A stretch of 64,000 nt of DNA from Escherichia coli (GCF_003018255.1 NZ_CP027440.1), one strand, 5' to 3'. Shown: positions 510 to 48,328, counted from the stretch's first letter. The notes: generated by a model from the letters alone, not told the origin. Numbers and translations: made by a program.

Positions 510-1777
510 TGTTTGCCCTCTGTGATGTAAACGCGTTTTATGCCAGCTGTGAGACGGTGTTTCGCCCTGATTTATGGGGTAAACCGGTGGTTGTGCTATC
601 GAATAATGACGGTTGCGTTATCGCCCGAAACGCTGAGGCAAAGGCGTTGGGCGTTAAAATGGGCGATCCCTGGTTCAAACAAAAAGATCTGTTTCGCCGC
701 TGTGGCGTGGTTTGCTTTAGCAGTAACTATGAGCTTTACGCCGATATGAGCAATCGGGTGATGTCGACGCTGGAAGAATTATCGCCCCGCGTCGAGATTT
801 ACAGTATTGATGAGGCATTCTGCGATCTGACCGGTGTGCGTAATTGTCGCGATCTGACTGATTTTGGCCGAGAAATTCGCGCAACGGTGCTACAACGTAC
901 CCATCTTACTGTTGGCGTGGGGATCGCCCAGACCAAAACGCTGGCTAAGCTTGCCAATCATGCGGCAAAAAAATGGCAGCGGCAGACGGGTGGGGTGGTG
1001 GATTTATCAAATCTGGAACGCCAGCGTAAATTAATGTCTGCTCTCCCCGTGGATGAAGTCTGGGGGATTGGACGGCGGATCAGCAAAAAACTGGACGCGA
1101 TGGGGATCAAAACCGTTCTCGATTTGGCGGGTACAGATATCCGGTTTATCCGTAAACATTTTAATGTCGTGCTCGAAAGAACGGTGCGTGAACTGCACGG
1201 TGAACCCTGTTTGCAACTGGAAGAGTTTGCACCGACGAAGCAGGAAATTATCTGTTCCCGTTCGTTTGGTGAACGCATCACGGATTATACGTCGATGCGG
1301 CAGGCCATTTGTAGTTACGCTGCCCGGGCGGCGGAAAAACTTCGCAGTGAGCATCAATATTGTCGGTTTATTTCCACGTTTATTAAGACGTCACCATTTG
1401 CGCTCAATGAACCTTATTACGGCAATAGCGCGTCGGTAAAACTGCTGACGCCCACTCAGGACAGCAGGGATATCATTAACGCCGCTACGCGATCTCTGGA
1501 TGCCATCTGGCAAGCGGGCCATCGCTACCAAAAAGCGGGCGTGATGCTGGGAGATTTCTTCAGTCAGGGAGTCGCGCAGCTCAATTTATTCGATGACAAC
1601 GCACCGCCCCCCGGGAGTGAGCAATTGATGGCGGTAATGGATACTCTGAATGCTAAAGAGGGCAGAGGAACACTCTATTTTGCCGGGCAGGGGATCCAAC
1701 AACAATGGCAGATGAAGCGAGCTATGCTTTCACCACGTTATACAACGCGAAGTTCTGATTTACTGCGGGTCAAATAA
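509..1777 (+). CDS. umuC: UmuC, DNA polymerase V catalytic subunit (Y-family)
   Basis: 422-aa ORF starting [15 protein letters not shown], the Y-family polymerase N-terminus; 1-nt overlap with umuD. Confidence 0.95.
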   Translation: MFALCDVNAFYASCETVFRPDLWGKPVVVLSNNDGCVIARNAEAKALGVKMGDPWFKQKDLFRRCGVVCFSSNYELYADMSNRVMSTLEELSPRVEIYSIDEAFCDLTGVRNCRDLTDFGREIRATVLQRTHLTVGVGIAQTKTLAKLANHAAKKWQRQTGGVVDLSNLERQRKLMSALPVDEVWGIGRRISKKLDAMGIKTVLDLAGTDIRFIRKHFNVVLERTVRELHGEPCLQLEEFAPTKQEIICSRSFGERITDYTSMRQAICSYAARAAEKLRSEHQYCRFISTFIKTSPFALNEPYYGNSASVKLLTPTQDSRDIINAATRSLDAIWQAGHRYQKAGVMLGDFFSQGVAQLNLFDDNAPPPGSEQLMAVMDTLNAKEGRGTLYFAGQGIQQQWQMKRAMLSPRYTTRSSDLLRVK

Positions 1778-1784
1778 ACATAGC

Positions 1785-1815
1785 GGCAGGAAAAAAGCGC
1801 TCCCGCAGGAGCGCT
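1785..1815. terminator. Hairpin between convergent umuC and dsbB (likely dsbB terminator)
   Basis: Inverted repeat AGCGCTCC-CGCA-GGAGCGCT at 1796..1815; an A-run precedes it on the plus strand, giving a T-run after the hairpin on the minus strand. Confidence 0.5.
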
Positions 1816-1822
1816 GAATGGA

Positions 1823-2353
1823 TTAGCGACCGAACAGGTCACGTTTTTTCGCTTTAAACGGCTGGGAAATCACCACCAGCACCGCGACAATCAGGTAAGC
1901 GATAAAAATACCGAGCAACCACTGCGGCATTTCCAGACCTAAAAAATCCCACTGACGCTCGGCGCAATCGCCAGAGGCGACAAACACTTGCGGCACCCAT
2001 TTATCCAGCGGCAGCCATTCCGGGAAACGAACCATAAAATCACAGGTCGCAAACGGCGAAGGATAGAGCTGAAGCATGGTGTGCTCGTAAGTTAACTGCA
2101 CACCGCGGAACGCACTATACAACCAGATAACCATCGCTACATAACGCAGCGGAGTTTTCGGGGCGATCGCGCCAATCAGCGCAGCACCCAGAACGCCGAA
2201 TAATGCGCAGCGTTCATAAATACAGAGCACGCAAGGTTTCAGTAACATCACATGCTGGAACCACAGTGCCGTCAGTTCCAGTGCCAGAGCGGTAAACGCC
2301 ATCAACAGCCACGCGCCCCGGCCTTGTGAACATTGGTTCAAAAATCGCAACAT
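1823..2353 (-). CDS. dsbB: DsbB, disulfide bond formation membrane protein
   Basis: ORF translation [20 protein letters not shown]... recognised as DsbB; start trimmed to the second Met of the track ORF to give 176 aa. Confidence 0.9.
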
Positions 2354-2498
2354 AATCATTTCCCTGCAATATGCATAGAGTGCGCAGTTTAAACCAATTC
2401 ATTCGCTGCGCCACCAGGAGGCAGCAAAAATAGGACGCAATTGGACAATTATCGGGCGAAAAGGCAAACCGGGCATTTATATGCCCGGTAAGTTGTTA

Positions 2499-4040
2499 TC
2501 AAAGCGTTGCTATCCAGCCCATTTGCATAAACCATTCGGTTACAGGGGCAAGCGTAAACTCGACGCAAAGTAGTCCGACGAGTGTCAGGACGAGGGTGTA
2601 AGGCAGGGCCATCCACACCATGCGGCCATAAGAGAGGCGAATCAATGGCGCGAGTGCAGAGGTCAGCAGGAACAGGAACGCAGCCTGACCGTTCGGCGTA
2701 GCGACAGAGGGCAGATTGGTACCGGTATTAATGGCGACCGCCAGCAGCTCGTATTGCTTCAACGTGATAGCGCCACTTTCCATTGCCGCTTTCGCTTCGT
2801 TGATATAAATCGTCCCCACGAAGACGTTATCCGAAATGGATGACAGCAGACCGTTGAAAATATAGAACAGCGACAGCTGAGCATGTTCCGATGCCTGCAA
2901 CACAAACTGAATAATCGGCGAAAACAGTTGTTGGTCGATAATCACCGCGACTACCGAGAAAAACACCGTCAACAGTGCGGTGAATGGCAGAGATTCGGTG
3001 AAGGCTTTACCGATAGCATGTTCATCGGTGACACCGGTCAATGATGTCGCCAGAATAATGACTGACAAACCAATCAAGCCAACTTCCGCCAGATGCAACG
3101 CCAGCGCAGTCACCAGCCAGACGCCAATAATCGCCTGGACAATCAGACGGATTTTATCCTGACGGGTACGCTGGTGGCGGCTTTGATCGTCAAACTGTTG
3201 CAGTACTTCGCGGACTTTCTCCGGCAGCGTTTCACCATAGCCAAACCAACGCAGCTTCTCTACCAGCAGGCAGGTTAACAGGCCACAAATCAGAACCGGA
3301 ACGGTCACTGGCGACATGCGCAGGAAGAAATCGCCAAAATGCCAGCCAGCCGCTTTAGCGATGATCAGGTTCTGTGGTTCGCCCACCATGGTCATTACGC
3401 CGCCTAATGCGGTGCCGACACCGGCATGCATCATCAGGCTACGCAGAAAGCCACGGAACTGTTCCAGAACCACTTTGTAATGCTTGTCGATATGACTATC
3501 GTCTTGCAGGTCGGTATCTTCGGTACGGGAAGAGGCTACGCGGTGATAAATCCCATAAAAACCGACTGCAACGCTGATCACCACCGCCACGACGGTTAAG
3601 GCATCGAGGAACGCGGAGAGGAACGCCGCCGCCACGCAAAAAGAGAGCGACAGCAGCATTTTGGAGCGAATGCTTAACAGCAAACGGGTAAATATGAACA
3701 GCAACAGCTGTTTCATAAAATAGATACCCGCCACCATAAACATCAGTAACAGCAAGACTTCAAGATTTGCCGCCACCTCTTCACGGACGTGTTCCGCGCT
3801 GGTCATGCCGATGAATACCGCTTCGATAGCCAACAGGCCACCGGGGAGTAGCGGGTAGCATTTCAGGGCCATCGCCAGAGTGAAAATAAATTCCGCTACC
3901 AGCAACCAGCCAGCGACGAAAGGGCTGATGAGGAAAATTAACGGATTTACGATTAAGAAAATGATGAGGGCGAGTTTGTACCAGTCGGGGGACTGGCCCA
4001 AAAAATTGCGCCATAACGCGCGGCCCCAGGAGATCTCCAT
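2499..4040 (-). CDS. nhaB: NhaB Na+/H+ antiporter
   Basis: Polytopic membrane protein recognised as NhaB; start trimmed to [13 protein letters not shown] (513 aa) from the 531-aa track ORF. Confidence 0.9.
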
Positions 4041-4261
4041 GATGGTTTCCCTTACCTTACAAATAATCAATGATGTTTTTATGTTTAAACGCAAAGCTTA
4101 ACGGTCAGGCAGGAGTGAGGCAAGTCTTGATAGTCAAGGGTAAAGAGATGCGGAAAATGAAGCCTTGATCCCTTTTTTCTTCTTTTTGTCTGCTATCAGC
4201 GTAGTTAGCCCTCTGGTATGATGAGTCCAACTTTGTTTTGCTGTGTTATGGAAATCTCACT

Positions 4262-4981
4262 ATGGTCATTAAGGCGCAAAGCCCGGCGGGTTTCGCGGAA
4301 GAGTACATTATTGAAAGTATCTGGAATAACCGCTTCCCTCCCGGGACTATTTTGCCCGCAGAACGTGAACTTTCAGAATTAATTGGCGTAACGCGTACTA
4401 CGTTACGTGAAGTGTTACAACGTCTGGCACGAGATGGCTGGTTGACCATTCAACACGGCAAGCCGACGAAGGTGAATAATTTCTGGGAAACCTCCGGTTT
4501 AAATATCCTTGAAACACTGGCACGACTGGATCACGAAAGTGTGCCGCAGCTTATTGATAATTTGCTGTCGGTGCGTACCAATATTTCAACGATTTTTATT
4601 CGCACCGCGTTTCGTCAGCATCCTGATAAAGCGCAGGAAGTACTGGCAACCGCTAATGAAGTGGCCGATCACGCCGATGCCTTTGCCGAGCTGGATTACA
4701 ACATATTCCGCGGTCTGGCATTTGCTTCCGGCAACCCGATTTACGGTCTGATCCTTAACGGGATGAAAGGGCTGTATACGCGCATTGGTCGTCACTATTT
4801 CGCCAATCCGGAAGCGCGCAGTCTGGCGCTGGGTTTCTACCACAAACTGTCGGCATTGTGCAGTGAAGGCGCACACGATCAGGTATACGAAACAGTGCGT
4901 CGCTATGGGCATGAGAGCGGCGAGATTTGGCACCGGATGCAGAAAAATCTGCCGGGTGATTTAGCCATTCAGGGGCGATAA
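4262..4981 (+). CDS. fadR: FadR, GntR-family fatty acid metabolism regulator
   Basis: Translation [60 protein letters not shown] is the FadR HTH N-terminus; 239 aa from the internal Met. Confidence 0.95.
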
Positions 4982-43058: not shown

Positions 43059-43215
43059 AACCGGTAGCTTAGTTAAAGCTATTCGTGCGGTGTTGCCTTG
43101 CAAGTGGTCCGTGGATTGCATATTGTCCCGTTAGTGGTTTCAAAATGAGCAGTAAAAATGTCCGGAAGACACCAAAAAGTTGTCGCAGGGAAGTATGCAG
43201 TGGCGGAGGTGTAAG

Positions 43216-43911
43216 GTGATAACGCGTGATTTCTTGATGAATGCCGATTGTAAAACGGCATTTGGTGCCATTGAAGAATCACTCTTATGGTCAGCAGAAC
43301 AACGGGCGGCTTCGCTGGCGGCGACGCTGGCTTGTCGACCTGATGAGGGACCGGTGTGGATCTTCGGTTATGGATCGTTGATGTGGAATCCGGCACTGGA
43401 GTTTACCGAGTCGTGCACCGGTACACTGGTTGGATGGCATCGTGCGTTTTGCCTGCGCCTGACCGCCGGGCGCGGGACTGCGCACCAGCCGGGACGGATG
43501 CTTGCACTGAAAGAGGGCGGACGCACCACAGGCGTCGCCTATCGACTGCCAGAAGAGACGCTGGAGCAGGAACTAACCCTGTTGTGGAAGCGCGAGATGA
43601 TTACCGGCTGTTATCTGCCAACCTGGTGTCAGCTTGATCTTGATGATGGACGCACAGTAAACGCCATTGTGTTTATTATGGACCCGCGACATCCAGAATA
43701 TGAATCTGACACTCGCGCTCAGGTCATCGCGCCGTTGATTGCGGCGGCGAGCGGTCCACTGGGAACCAACGCACAATACCTGTTTTCACTGGAACAGGAG
43801 CTTATCAAACTGGGAATGCAGGACGATGGGCTGAATGATTTGCTGGTATCGGTAAAAAAACTGCTGGCGGAGAATTATCCGGATGGTGTGTTACGGCCGG
43901 GACTCGCCTGA
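43216..43911 (+). CDS. chaC: ChaC, gamma-glutamylcyclotransferase-family protein
   Basis: 231 aa assuming a GTG start (V/MITRDFLMNADCKTAFG); the track ORF has a 12-codon upstream ATG extension. Confidence 0.85.
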   Translation: MITRDFLMNADCKTAFGAIEESLLWSAEQRAASLAATLACRPDEGPVWIFGYGSLMWNPALEFTESCTGTLVGWHRAFCLRLTAGRGTAHQPGRMLALKEGGRTTGVAYRLPEETLEQELTLLWKREMITGCYLPTWCQLDLDDGRTVNAIVFIMDPRHPEYESDTRAQVIAPLIAAASGPLGTNAQYLFSLEQELIKLGMQDDGLNDLLVSVKKLLAENYPDGVLRPGLA

Positions 43912-43954
43912 GTAAACTTCCCTCATAGTGGGGCGTCAGACGCCCCCTCAAACA

Positions 43955-44308
43955 TTAAAATGTGAGCACTTTATCGGCTGACAGCGTCCATTGCGCCAGT
44001 TCCACAAGCGTACCGATTTCCACCCCATCAATCAGAGGAAGTGTACTAATCCCGCGCCCGTCGGTACAGGTTTTGCACAATTTCACCGGTACATTCTGAG
44101 CGGTAAGGATCTCCAGCATTTGCTGAATGTTGTAGCCTTCCCCTGGTTTTTGCCCGCGCAACCCGGCTGTGACCGCATCAGACATCAGGAACAGACGCAG
44201 ATCCAGATTGCTCTCCTGCTCTCGTAACGCAATGGCCAGCCGCAAGCTGTTAAATAAGGATTCGCTCCCGTAAGGTGCGCCATTGGCAACGATCACGATT
44301 TTTTGCAT
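43955..44308 (-). CDS. ychN: YchN, DsrE/DsrF-like family protein
   Basis: 117-aa ORF MQKIVIVANGAPYGSESLFNSLRLAIAL recognised as YchN. Confidence 0.9.
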   Translation of the reverse strand: MQKIVIVANGAPYGSESLFNSLRLAIALREQESNLDLRLFLMSDAVTAGLRGQKPGEGYNIQQMLEILTAQNVPVKLCKTCTDGRGISTLPLIDGVEIGTLVELAQWTLSADKVLTF

Positions 44309-44325
44309 TATTTACTCCTGTATTC

Positions 44326-44429
<104 letters not shown>

Positions 44430-44457
44430 TTGCCAGTAATCGTTATTCTTTAGGGCT

Positions 44458-45888
44458 ATGGTTTTTCATTTTTTACCGGAAGTTACCGACGTTTTGAGCC
44501 GTTTCGTTCCTCGCATTATTCCGTTTTATTTACTCTTGCTGGCGGCAGGCGGTACAGCTAACGCACAATCTACCTTCGAGCAAAAAGCGGCAAATCCCTT
44601 TGATAATAACAATGATGGTCTGCCGGATTTAGGCATGGCACCTGAAAATCATGATGGGGAAAAACACTTTGCTGAAATTGTGAAAGATTTCGGCGAAACC
44701 AGTATGAATGATAACGGGCTGGATACTGGCGAGCAGGCAAAAGCTTTCGCATTGGGAAAAGTCCGCGACGCGTTTAGTCAACAGGTTAATCAGCACGTAG
44801 AGTCGTGGCTATCAGCGTGGGGAAATGCCAGTGTTGACGTCAAAGTGGATAACGAAGGACATTTCACCGGCAGTCGTGGAAGCTGGTTTGTGCCGTTACA
44901 AGATAATGATCGTTATCTCACCTGGAGCCAGCTTGGTCTTACTCAGCAGGATGATGGGCTGGTGAGCAATGTGGGCGTTGGGCAACGCTGGGCGCGCGGC
45001 AGCTGGCTGGTGGGTTATAACACTTTTTATGACAACTTGCTGGACGAAAATCTTCAGCGAGCGGGCTTCGGTGCCGAAGCGTGGGGCGAATATTTGCGAC
45101 TATCGGCAAACTTTTATCAGCCGTTTGCTGCATGGCATGAACAGACAGCCACGCAGGAACAACGGATGGCGCGCGGGTACGACCTGACAGCCCGGATGCG
45201 CATGCCGTTTTATCAACACCTCAATACCAGTGTCAGCGTAGAACAGTATTTTGGTGATCGTGTTGATTTGTTTAACTCTGGTACGGGTTATCACAATCCC
45301 GTCGCGTTGAGTCTGGGATTAAATTATACCCCAGTGCCATTAGTCACTGTGACGGCCCAGCATAAACAGGGTGAAAGTGGCGAAAATCAAAATAACCTCG
45401 GGCTGAATCTTAATTACCGCTTTGGTGTACCGCTCAAAAAACAACTTTCTGCGGGCGAGGTTGCCGAAAGTCAGTCGTTACGTGGTAGTCGCTATGACAA
45501 TCCGCAGCGAAATAATCTACCGACTCTTGAGTACCGACAGCGAAAAACGTTAACGGTGTTTCTGGCGACACCGCCGTGGGATCTAAAACCTGGCGAAACA
45601 GTGCCGCTGAAATTACAAATCCGCAGTCGTTACGGTATTCGGCAACTGATTTGGCAGGGCGATACGCAGATATTAAGTTTGACGCCGGGCGCACAAGCCA
45701 ACAGTGAGGAGGGCTGGACGCTGATCATGCCTGACTGGCAAAACGGGGAAGGCGCAAGCAATCACTGGCGATTGTCAGTGGTGGTGGAAGATAACCAGGG
45801 GCAGCGTGTCTCCTCCAATGAGATCACGCTAACGCTTGTCGAACCGTTCGACGCATTGTCAAACGACGAACTGCGCTGGGAACCGTAA
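44458..45888 (+). CDS. ychO: YchO, invasin/intimin-like (inverse autotransporter family) protein
   Basis: 476-aa ORF with signal-like N-terminus and beta-rich content, located between ychN and narL as in K-12; true start uncertain. Confidence 0.75.
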   Translation: MVFHFLPEVTDVLSRFVPRIIPFYLLLLAAGGTANAQSTFEQKAANPFDNNNDGLPDLGMAPENHDGEKHFAEIVKDFGETSMNDNGLDTGEQAKAFALGKVRDAFSQQVNQHVESWLSAWGNASVDVKVDNEGHFTGSRGSWFVPLQDNDRYLTWSQLGLTQQDDGLVSNVGVGQRWARGSWLVGYNTFYDNLLDENLQRAGFGAEAWGEYLRLSANFYQPFAAWHEQTATQEQRMARGYDLTARMRMPFYQHLNTSVSVEQYFGDRVDLFNSGTGYHNPVALSLGLNYTPVPLVTVTAQHKQGESGENQNNLGLNLNYRFGVPLKKQLSAGEVAESQSLRGSRYDNPQRNNLPTLEYRQRKTLTVFLATPPWDLKPGETVPLKLQIRSRYGIRQLIWQGDTQILSLTPGAQANSEEGWTLIMPDWQNGEGASNHWRLSVVVEDNQGQRVSSNEITLTLVEPFDALSNDELRWEP

Positions 45889-46539
45889 TCAGAAAATGCG
45901 CTCCTGATGCACCCATACCGCAGCTTCCACGCGAGACTTTAGCTTCATTTTCTTCAGCATGTGCTTGACGTGAACTTTTACTGTGCTTTCGGTGATGTCC
46001 AGGCGGCGGGCAATCATCTTGTTCGGCAAACCCTGGGCAATTAGCTTGAGAATATCGCGCTCGCGTGGGGTTAACTGGTTAACATCGCGCTCAGTAGTGG
46101 CACGGTTAGCGCGCAAGCTGGCGGCCAGAACAGGCGTTAATGCTTCGCTTAATACCATTTCGCCAGCAGCTGCCTGATGTAACGCTTTCAGCAGATCTTC
46201 CGGTTCCATATCTTTTAACAGATAGCCATCCGCGCCGCGTTTCAGTGCGGTGACCACATCTTCTTCATGGTTAGAGACGCTGAATACCACAATGCGCCCG
46301 GAGAGGGACTTTTCGCGCAGTTTATCCAGCGTTTCCAGACCGTTCATGCCGGGCATATTGAGATCTAACAGGATCAGATCGGGATCAAGAGACTCCGCCA
46401 GTTCAATACCCTGTTCGCCATTACTCGCTTCGCCAACCACGGTGATATCTGGTGCCATACTGATAAGCTGTTTTACGCCAGTTCGCAGCATCGGGTGATC
46501 GTCAATCAGCAGGATAGTAGCCGGTTCCTGATTACTCAT
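45889..46539 (-). CDS. narL: NarL, nitrate/nitrite response regulator
   Basis: 216 aa from [25 protein letters not shown]; receiver domain plus LuxR-type HTH; start overlaps the narX stop. Confidence 0.95.
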
Positions 46540-48328
46540 GGGTATCTCCTTGGACGTCTGTGAAAGTTTTTTCGGGAATAAAGGTGACCACCACTTCGGT
46601 GCCACCTGATTCACGACGGCGGACGCGGCAATCGCCCCGTAAACTTTGCGCACGGTCGCGCATTATTATCATGCCGTAGTGATTGCTGCGGATGGCATTT
46701 TCAGGCACGCCGCAGCCGTTATCCTGGACGGTCAGTTTGACCTGATTATCGTTTTGCGCCACTGTCACCACGACCTCACTCGCTTGCGAATGTTTGAGGG
46801 CGTTACTTAATGCCTCACGGGCAATTTGCAACAGATGGATTGCCTGATGCGAAGGCACCAGACGAGGCGGCAATTGATAATCCAGCTTCACCGGGAAGCC
46901 AAACCTGGCGCTGTACTCTTCGCAACTCGCCTCCAGCGCCGGACGTAATCCAGGCTCGGTGAGCTGCAAGCGGAATGTGGTGAGCAATTCACGCAACTGC
47001 GCCCAGGATGCATTCAGTTCGTTACGGATCTGACTTAACAGTTCGCGGCTGCTTTCTGGCAGCGCATCGCCCTGCATCTGTAAACAACTCACCTGCATCT
47101 TCATGCAAGAGAGAGATTGGGCAATAGAATCATGCAGTTCGCGCGCAATGGTGGCACGCTCTTCCATCACGATCAACTGTTGCTGACGTTCCTGATGGCG
47201 ATCCAGCGCAAGCGTGGCGGTGAGTTGTTCAACCAGGGTATCCACCAGTTGTTGTTGATCATGACTAAGATGACGCCCCTGCGGCAGGGTTGCCAGCAAA
47301 ATACCGTACTGCGTATGAGAGTCAGCCAGCCGCCACTTCAGGGTTGTGCCGCGATCGCCAACGGGGAGTACACCGCGCGGGCAGAGCTGACAGCCTTTAT
47401 CATCGCAGGTCATATCTGGCTGGCAGGTAAACTCCTGATGATTCTCTTCATCATCAGTGTCATACACCCGCAGTTCGATATCACGTAGCAGGGTTAAATT
47501 CTGTAAGCCGTTGAGTACAGGTGACAAGCGTTCACACAGCGGGGCGCGGGAATGCAAACGGCGGTTAGCCTGCCATAAAAAAGAGAGGATCTGATTTTTA
47601 TGCTCCAGCCCGGCGGTTTTCTCCTGAACCCGCTGCTCAAGTACGGCATAACTTTCGGCCAGTTCTGCAGACATATTGTTCAACGCAGTTCCAAGCATCG
47701 CCATTTCGTTGCGCCCGCTGATGTTCGCGCGTTGGGTAAAATCGCGATGACTGACGGCACTCGCCATTGCCAGCAATTGCCGCCACGGTTGTAGCAGTCG
47801 CGCCCGCAACCAGATAATAGTGAACACCAGTAAAAGTGCCATAAATACCGCCATTACCCGATGGACCAGTACCACTGTCTCAATGCGCATTTCCGTGGTG
47901 CGGTCAAAACCAGATACCAGCTGATCAAGCCCGGCAACAAACTGGCTGACATCCGCTGACACCGTTTCGCGGTTTTGAGCACGCATCAGCGTAGGGATCA
48001 GTTCATTACGCCAGTAATCTTGTAAACCCTGTAATTGCGCCAGTTGTCCGTCTCGTTCTGCTGCTCGGGTTAACTCGGCGCTAAATGCCGTTTGTTCCAT
48101 TTCTTTAATTAAGGGCTTGTCTTTCTCGCTTAATGGCACTGCTGCCAACAGACGGTAACTTTGCATGCGCAGCGATCCCGCTTTGTTGATCGCATGGGCG
48201 CTGCCCTGAACGCCTTGCACTAGCCAGCCAGAAACTGCCATCCCTGCCAGTCCAATAGCAGTAGAAAGCAACACAATAAGCGCAACCTGATTAACCAGGG
48301 TGAGCGGAGAGAGACAACGTTTAAGCAT
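46532..48328 (-). CDS. narX: NarX, nitrate/nitrite sensor histidine kinase
   Basis: 598-aa ORF with periplasmic P-box region, HAMP domain and histidine kinase core (ELHDSIAQ). Confidence 0.95.

Follow-up and report, generated by a model that had tools for sequence, protein, structure and literature searches.

The gene at 44494..45888 on the plus strand of the 64,000-nt stretch of Escherichia coli DNA that we analysed (hereafter the window) is very probably an intact, core-genome copy of ychO (iatA), the smallest inverse autotransporter of E. coli (type Ve secretion), read from a TTG start codon. Its family assignment, fold and start position were established by homology and comparative analysis. 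A first-pass annotation of this DNA had described a 476-aa frame; an ORF of 476 codons with an ATG start is indeed present in the ORF listing at 44458..45888 (+), but the supported coding sequence is the 464-aa one at 44494..45888, and the longer call overshoots it by 36 nt. The gene, its predicted parts and its neighbours are as follows:

44494..45888, plus strand: ychO (iatA) coding sequence, 464 codons plus a TAA stop, from TTG
44494..44565, plus strand: predicted Sec signal peptide of 24 aa, MSRFVPRIIPFYLLLLAAGGTANA, with cleavage before QS
44566..44814, plus strand: putative periplasmic N-terminal segment, residues 25-107, with the motif NPFDNNxDGLPDLG, predicted helices and no LysM
44815..45537, plus strand: predicted inverse-autotransporter beta-domain, residues 108-348, comprising a 12-strand barrel (111-308), a linker and a short helix (320-325)
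45550..45834, plus strand: predicted passenger, a single Ig-like beta-sandwich resembling intimin D00, residues 353-447
43955..44308, minus strand: ychN, the divergent upstream neighbour
45889..46539, minus strand: narL, the convergent neighbour, followed by narX (placed from mapped RefSeq coordinates and the sequence)

The gene name ychO, which the first-pass annotation had already proposed, was borne out by a match to the NCBIfam YchO/YchP equivalog NF007556 of 799.9 bits (cutoff 508) over model positions 3-452 of 454, and by the annotation of strain JNE23-011, in which the gene is called ychO and the DNA is 100% identical to the ychO region of the window. Its description as a short inverse autotransporter with an intimin/invasin beta-domain likewise held, the protein of the 476-codon ORF matching Pfam IAT_beta (PF11924) with an E-value of 1.3e-102 over profile positions 4-279 of 279. 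The more specific models were not satisfied: YchO scored 183.6 bits against the intimin model NF033627 (cutoff 1400), in the beta-domain region only, and 176.9 bits against the Inv model NF040980 (cutoff 710), and it fell far under the cutoffs of SinH and the other NCBIfam models. An alignment to invasin and intimin, a check suggested at the outset, gave matches of residues 108-348 to the beta-domains of invasin 4E1T (phmmer E 1.1e-47) and intimin 4E1S (E 3.1e-41), with the invasin alignment continuing through the linker to residue 348.

The proximity to the nar regulators was also correct, as narL follows directly after the ychO stop on the opposite strand and narX comes next. The gene order chaC-ychN-ychO-narL-narX is kept, and the same ychN and narL neighbours were found in all annotated E. 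coli genomes that we inspected. The 1,601-nt ychO region is present in 5422 of 5426 complete E. coli genomes, at least 80% of it in 5420 of these 5426; the window allele is uncommon but not unique, with 213 records at least 99% identical over the locus. Horizontal acquisition of ychO was ruled out by a GC content (0.45-0.56) like that of the neighbouring genes, together with the synteny across genera. In E. coli assemblies thirteen matches to the ychO region lie on plasmid-labelled records, and one genome carries three copies; mis-assigned replicons or engineered strains may lie behind these. The YchO cluster at 90% identity includes a 95-aa protein fragment assigned to Pseudomonas aeruginosa and encoded on a contig of 287 nt, most likely an E. 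coli contamination of that assembly.

More than one possible start had been anticipated for this frame, and we considered four: ATG 44458, TTG 44494, TTG 44536 and ATG 44635. The features that bear on the choice are these:

44458..44493, plus strand: strain-specific 12-codon extension from the ATG at 44458-44460, outside the conserved gene; no orthologue aligns to it
44469..44474, plus strand: T-run length polymorphism, T6 here and T5 or TTATT elsewhere, which sets the frame of the ATG
44478..44482, plus strand: weak Shine-Dalgarno-like GGAAG, 11 nt upstream of the TTG, whose best anti-SD duplex is -3.6 kcal/mol
44635..44637, plus strand: internal ATG, Met48 of the 464-aa protein, the start of an old 417-aa (1,254-bp) annotation

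Judged by comparison of orthologous sequences, the supported start of ychO is TTG 44494, 36 bases downstream of ATG 44458. RefSeq/PGAP places the start at this TTG in 10/10 genomes inspected, including the identical strain JNE23-011. We compared 72 orthologous loci, obtained from one scan of species-representative genomes of the Enterobacteriaceae, which take in the Escherichia clades, Citrobacter, Salmonella arizonae/diarizonae, Enterobacter, Leclercia, Lelliottia, Kosakonia, Phytobacter, Cedecea and others. An ATG, GTG or TTG codon lies within four codons on either side of the TTG column in 69 of these 72 loci, and a start falls exactly in the TTG-aligned column as TTG in 26 and as ATG in 11. 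In 33 of the 72 an in-frame stop occurs less than 12 codons upstream, in Citrobacter only 5 codons upstream. The TTG itself is invariant in the 15 Escherichia sequences compared, and the 405-nt distance given in Bonocora 2015 also leads to TTG 44494.

The presequence read from TTG (MSRFVPRIIPFYLLLLAAGGTANA|QS) has an n-region charge of +2, a hydrophobic core and an A-x-A motif (A-N-A) at -3/-1, a pattern that is kept across the 72 orthologues. A signal-peptide prediction for each candidate start had been suggested as a check, and by the simple heuristic rules that we applied (n-region charge, hydrophobic core, A-x-A) this canonical 24-aa presequence is obtained from TTG 44494 and none from ATG 44635. 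TTG 44536 was rejected as a start, being without an SD and placed such that it would cut the hydrophobic core.

Against TTG 44494 stand a weak start codon, a weak SD-like GGAAG and a long 11-nt spacer. A GAAG 11-12 nt upstream of the TTG is common to Citrobacter and Salmonella. SD pairing is weak for both TTG (-3.6 kcal/mol) and ATG 44458 (-3.4 kcal/mol), so sequence signals alone cannot decide between the two. In public collections, for the exact window allele, the 464-aa version is deposited on 590 contigs, under PGAP names, and the 476-aa version on 392 contigs, as "invasin" or hypothetical protein, and as both versions are deposited the ambiguity amounts to a difference between annotation pipelines. 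The 476-aa overshoot is an artefact of the same kind as the longest-ORF calls of two nearby genes. The longest-ORF rule gives narL 254 aa (45889-46653, minus strand) where 216 aa are annotated (45889-46539), and chaC 243 aa (43180-43911, plus strand) where 231 aa are annotated (43216-43911).

Translation could nevertheless begin at ATG 44458 here and in the other T6 lineages, giving a 476-aa precursor with a 36-aa extended signal peptide. An ATG is intrinsically a better initiator than a TTG, this one is in frame in the window and in at least 1244 E. coli records, its equally weak SD means that it could compete with the TTG in the window strain, the local mRNA structure around it is weaker (-4.2 kcal/mol, as against -7.8 kcal/mol around the TTG), and the 392 contigs mentioned above carry the 476-aa product. 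Long signal peptides also occur elsewhere, as in intimin and the classical autotransporters. If the ATG were used in the window strain, signal peptidase, cutting after ANA, would still yield an identical mature protein. We nevertheless consider its use unlikely, in view of how the T-run behaves across the species. K-12 lacks one nucleotide between this ATG and the TTG (CATTTTTTACC -> CA-TTATTACC), and the ATG is out of frame there as a result. Across the 15 Escherichia sequences, T6 is the only form of the T-run that keeps the ATG in frame; it occurs in the window, JNE23-011, O157, a B strain and 65COLEC. With T5 or TTATT the ATG is out of frame, e.g., in K-12 (TTATT), MS7163 and S7, and in none of the four outgroup Escherichia lineages examined is the ATG both present and in frame. 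Exact-match counts of the 89/90-nt start-region haplotypes over about 5422 complete E. coli genome records gave the following tally:

ATG out of frame: K-12 type (2528) and MS7163 type (1167), at least 3695 records, 68%
ATG in frame: window type (570), O157 type (309), 65COLEC type (94) and B/C type (271), at least 1244 records, 23%
Unassigned: other haplotypes, 483 records, 9%

An evenly spaced sample of genome matches agrees with this tally, 19 of its 29 full-length matches being 1 nt shorter. Since at least 68% of the E. coli records, and every outgroup Escherichia, are without an in-frame ATG at this site, the 12-residue extension cannot be required. The extension is furthermore found in none of the 72 orthologues; its 12 extra residues add two acidic ones, which leaves a 19-aa n-region that is net neutral; the AGGG near the ATG is only about 2-3 nt away, too close for a good SD; and PGAP leaves the ATG unused even in the identical strain JNE23-011. 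The start that the first-pass annotation had chosen is thus the least supported candidate, in frame only with T6 and elsewhere absent or out of frame. As a conserved start, ATG 44458 is ruled out by the K-12 frameshift, the Escherichia outgroups, the 72 orthologues and the haplotype tallies; it is a lineage-specific by-product of a 1-nt T-run insertion upstream of the real start.

In the out-of-frame haplotypes (K-12 and MS7163 types) the upstream ATG opens a 12-codon uORF, MVFH[YF]YRKLPTF* (equivalent to 44458-44497 of the window; positions 1659-1697 of locus L002), the TGA of which overlaps the ychO TTG start (TTGA). Such a uORF, ATG- or GTG-initiated, is found in E. coli and two close clades; E. 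whittamii, Escherichia sp. E1V33 and most Citrobacter do not have it. This restricted range leaves it unsupported as a conserved regulatory element. The T-run might conceivably switch lineages between termination-reinitiation coupling through the uORF and a direct ATG start with a longer signal peptide, a long shot in our estimation; were it true, YchO surface levels would differ between E. coli lineages.

The remaining candidate, the internal ATG 44635, is the start assumed by older K-12 and PGAAP annotations, in which the protein would be 417 aa long. It is at least an ATG, and it has a history of use, since Pilatti 2016 (PMC4787180) worked from the 1,254-bp annotation and added back a 141-bp "signal peptide" for a total of 1,395 bp. 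As 1,254 + 141 = 1,395 bp, however, the Pilatti 2016 total corresponds to the TTG start. The product of ATG 44635 would be without a signal peptide, leaving an outer-membrane barrel no route of export; conservation as protein in 72 species extends to the 47 codons upstream, including NPFDNNxDGLPDLG; and the exact 417-aa sequence was not found in the public collection. The missing signal peptide and the coding conservation upstream rule this start out, and it is almost certainly wrong.

Returning to the TTG-initiated gene, the suggestions that it might be truncated or extended relative to other strains, or pseudogenised, were both contradicted by the alignments. The window protein is 464 aa long, as in K-12 and O157, with an uninterrupted frame and no internal stops. 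It is colinear with K-12 YchO, with no indels and 7 substitutions (98.5% aa identity; window residue first in the 464-aa numbering, A17V, F94L, A108P, D154N, S170N, V249L and E405A), and with O157 YchO, with no indels and 4 substitutions. Against the expectation that a standard ychO would be identical to the K-12 reference, the full length and colinearity agree, and the protein identity is 98.5%, not 100%. At residue 108 (44815-44817), just before the first barrel strand, the window has Ala (S-A-W-G) where K-12, O157 and 67 of 70 orthologues have Pro. Intact orthologues were found at 70 of the 72 loci, 452-473 aa long and 57-94% identical over the whole length, C-terminal domain included, and this conservation of length and identity argues for purifying selection on the whole protein, including that domain. 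In agreement, Goh 2019 found iatA (EcSMS35_1920; 1,395 bp) complete in 124/126 genomes with >98% aa identity.

One might still read ychO as a degraded or truncated remnant, either a pseudogene or the passenger-less stub of a once longer adhesin, given that its passenger is very short compared with those of intimin, invasin, FdeC and YeeJ, that Goh 2019 could not detect the IatA protein, and that disrupted copies exist, by IS66-family insertion in strain S7 and by apparent frameshift in C. amalonaticus. We regard this as extremely improbable. Against it, the frame is uninterrupted, at 452-473 aa in 70/72 species and 57-94% identity; the passenger is predicted with confidence to fold as a complete Ig-like domain; among inverse autotransporters, Heinz 2016 described a monophyletic clade whose C-terminal extensions are short; and an APEC knockout has phenotypes. 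Pseudogenisation and truncation were ruled out by the uninterrupted frame, the colinearity with K-12 and O157 and the conserved length of the orthologues. In strain S7 (NZ_CP107128.1; disrupted region at 889-4823 of locus L004) an IS66-family element (ISEc23; tnpA, tnpB and transposase) interrupts ychO, which is annotated there as two pseudogene fragments, and in one C. amalonaticus genome the gene is apparently frameshifted; disrupted copies are rare.

The structure predictions suggest a simple architecture for this intact protein. A full-length AlphaFold2 (AF2) model built from the 71-sequence orthologue alignment had a mean pLDDT of 55 and a pTM of 0.39, with barrel pLDDT of 50-77, and was used only for the strand count and for Foldseek; the passenger was re-modelled separately. 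The full-length model has exactly 12 strands within residues 111-308, a helix at 320-325 and a C-terminal beta-sandwich, and in its low-confidence N-terminal part helices at 55-69 and 78-109. Foldseek matched it to 4E1T (E 5.9e-16 over 244 columns), 4E1S (E 3.6e-14) and 6TQD (E 4e-4). Modelled alone, residues 340-464 (125 residues) gave a mean pLDDT of 82, and the best PDB matches of this passenger were the four chains of 6TQD (intimin D00-D0; E 2.2e-5, TM 0.56, 22% identity), the remaining matches being to generic Ig, cadherin and FN3 folds. IAT_beta was the sole Pfam match in YchO, with no LysM, lectin or Big_1 domain detected. Following the signal peptide, a strongly conserved acidic motif, NPFDNNxDGLPDLG (44596-44640, residues ~35-49), is present in nearly all of the 71 sequences; it falls within what is presumed to be the periplasmic segment, N-terminal to the part for which beta-domain structures have been solved.

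On these models YchO is a minimal inverse autotransporter, in which a linker joins a predicted N-terminal barrel to one D00-like Ig domain at the C-terminus. Translation would begin at TTG 44494, and the 24-aa signal peptide would direct the protein through Sec; the N-terminal helical segment of ~80 aa would remain periplasmic, residues ~110-310 would form a 12-strand barrel of the intimin/invasin type in the outer membrane, the linker would thread its pore, and the one Ig-like domain at the C-terminus, a relative of intimin D00, would be displayed on the surface. Hairpin export by the type Ve route and surface display are what the family would lead one to expect, with the failure of Goh 2019 to detect IatA counting against display, and a role as adhesin or invasin is suggested by the family and by the APEC knockout study. 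In that work (PMC4787180) deletion of ychO affected pathogenicity, and expression of the gene in vivo was high in lung and spleen; it is the single APEC knockout study behind the pathogenicity role, and the phenotypes were pleiotropic.

Among known systems, the closest is K-12 YchO (b1220), which is the IatA of Goh 2019 and shares the ychN-ychO-narL locus, the length of 464 aa (1,395 bp) and the domain layout; it differs from the window gene by the seven substitutions listed above and by TTATT upstream in place of T6. Yersinia invasin and EHEC/EPEC intimin (4E1T, 4E1S, 6TQD) have a homologous 12-strand beta-domain (33-38% identity) in the same inverse order, barrel before passenger, and the first passenger domain is like intimin D00; YchO, however, has only one Ig-like domain and is without the C-type lectin/receptor-binding tip and LysM. 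The short-extension group of Heinz 2016 (PMC4943183), composed of a barrel and a short IgSF/FN3-like C-terminal extension with no Pfam Big domain, resembles YchO in layout. Some of its members, ZirT among them, work with co-encoded substrates, whereas no such partner gene adjoins ychO.

Everything essential here is in print (Pilatti 2016, Goh 2019, Heinz 2016) and in RefSeq: what the gene is and which family it belongs to, how short its passenger is, that nearly all E. coli carry it, and that its start has been a source of confusion. Only slightly new is the explicit link between the T-run and the 476-aa as opposed to 464-aa calls, to which the lineage-restricted uORF is related. The practical point is that the longest-ORF call adds 12 non-conserved residues; for cloning or tagging ychO from a T6 strain (O157, B) the TTG-defined N-terminus should be taken, or both starts kept in mind. 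Beyond annotation hygiene the importance of this is very little.

As to expression, the ychO stop TAA (45886-45888) abuts the narL stop TGA on the minus strand (45889-45891) with a gap of 0 nt, so any terminators must sit inside the opposite gene, and a 2025 long-read RNA-seq study (PMC12288877) described ychO-narL as a convergent excludon in K-12. On the upstream side the putative promoter site is as follows:

44309-44493: ychN-ychO intergenic region, 185 nt, putative site of the ychO promoter

A promoter scan returned one weak sigma-70-like match only, fewer than in shuffled sequences, and the promoter and terminator scans together gave nothing above the shuffled background. Rfam had no match at E <= 1 across 43900-46700, which takes in the leader and flanks, and an RNA element there was accordingly rejected. 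The sigma-54 binding site IA11 of Bonocora 2015 (TCGGTACAGGTTTTGCA) has an exact copy at 44061-44077 (+), inside ychN on its antisense strand, pointing toward ychO from about 417 nt upstream of the TTG. In addition, ychO is listed in the YfeC regulon. In the Cedecea, Buttiauxella and related orthologues (loci L066-L069), TGTTATAAT, an extended -10 consensus, lies ~8-17 nt upstream of the ATG; its end about 8 nt before the ATG suggests that these genes may be expressed from a leaderless or very short-leader mRNA, unlike in E. coli.
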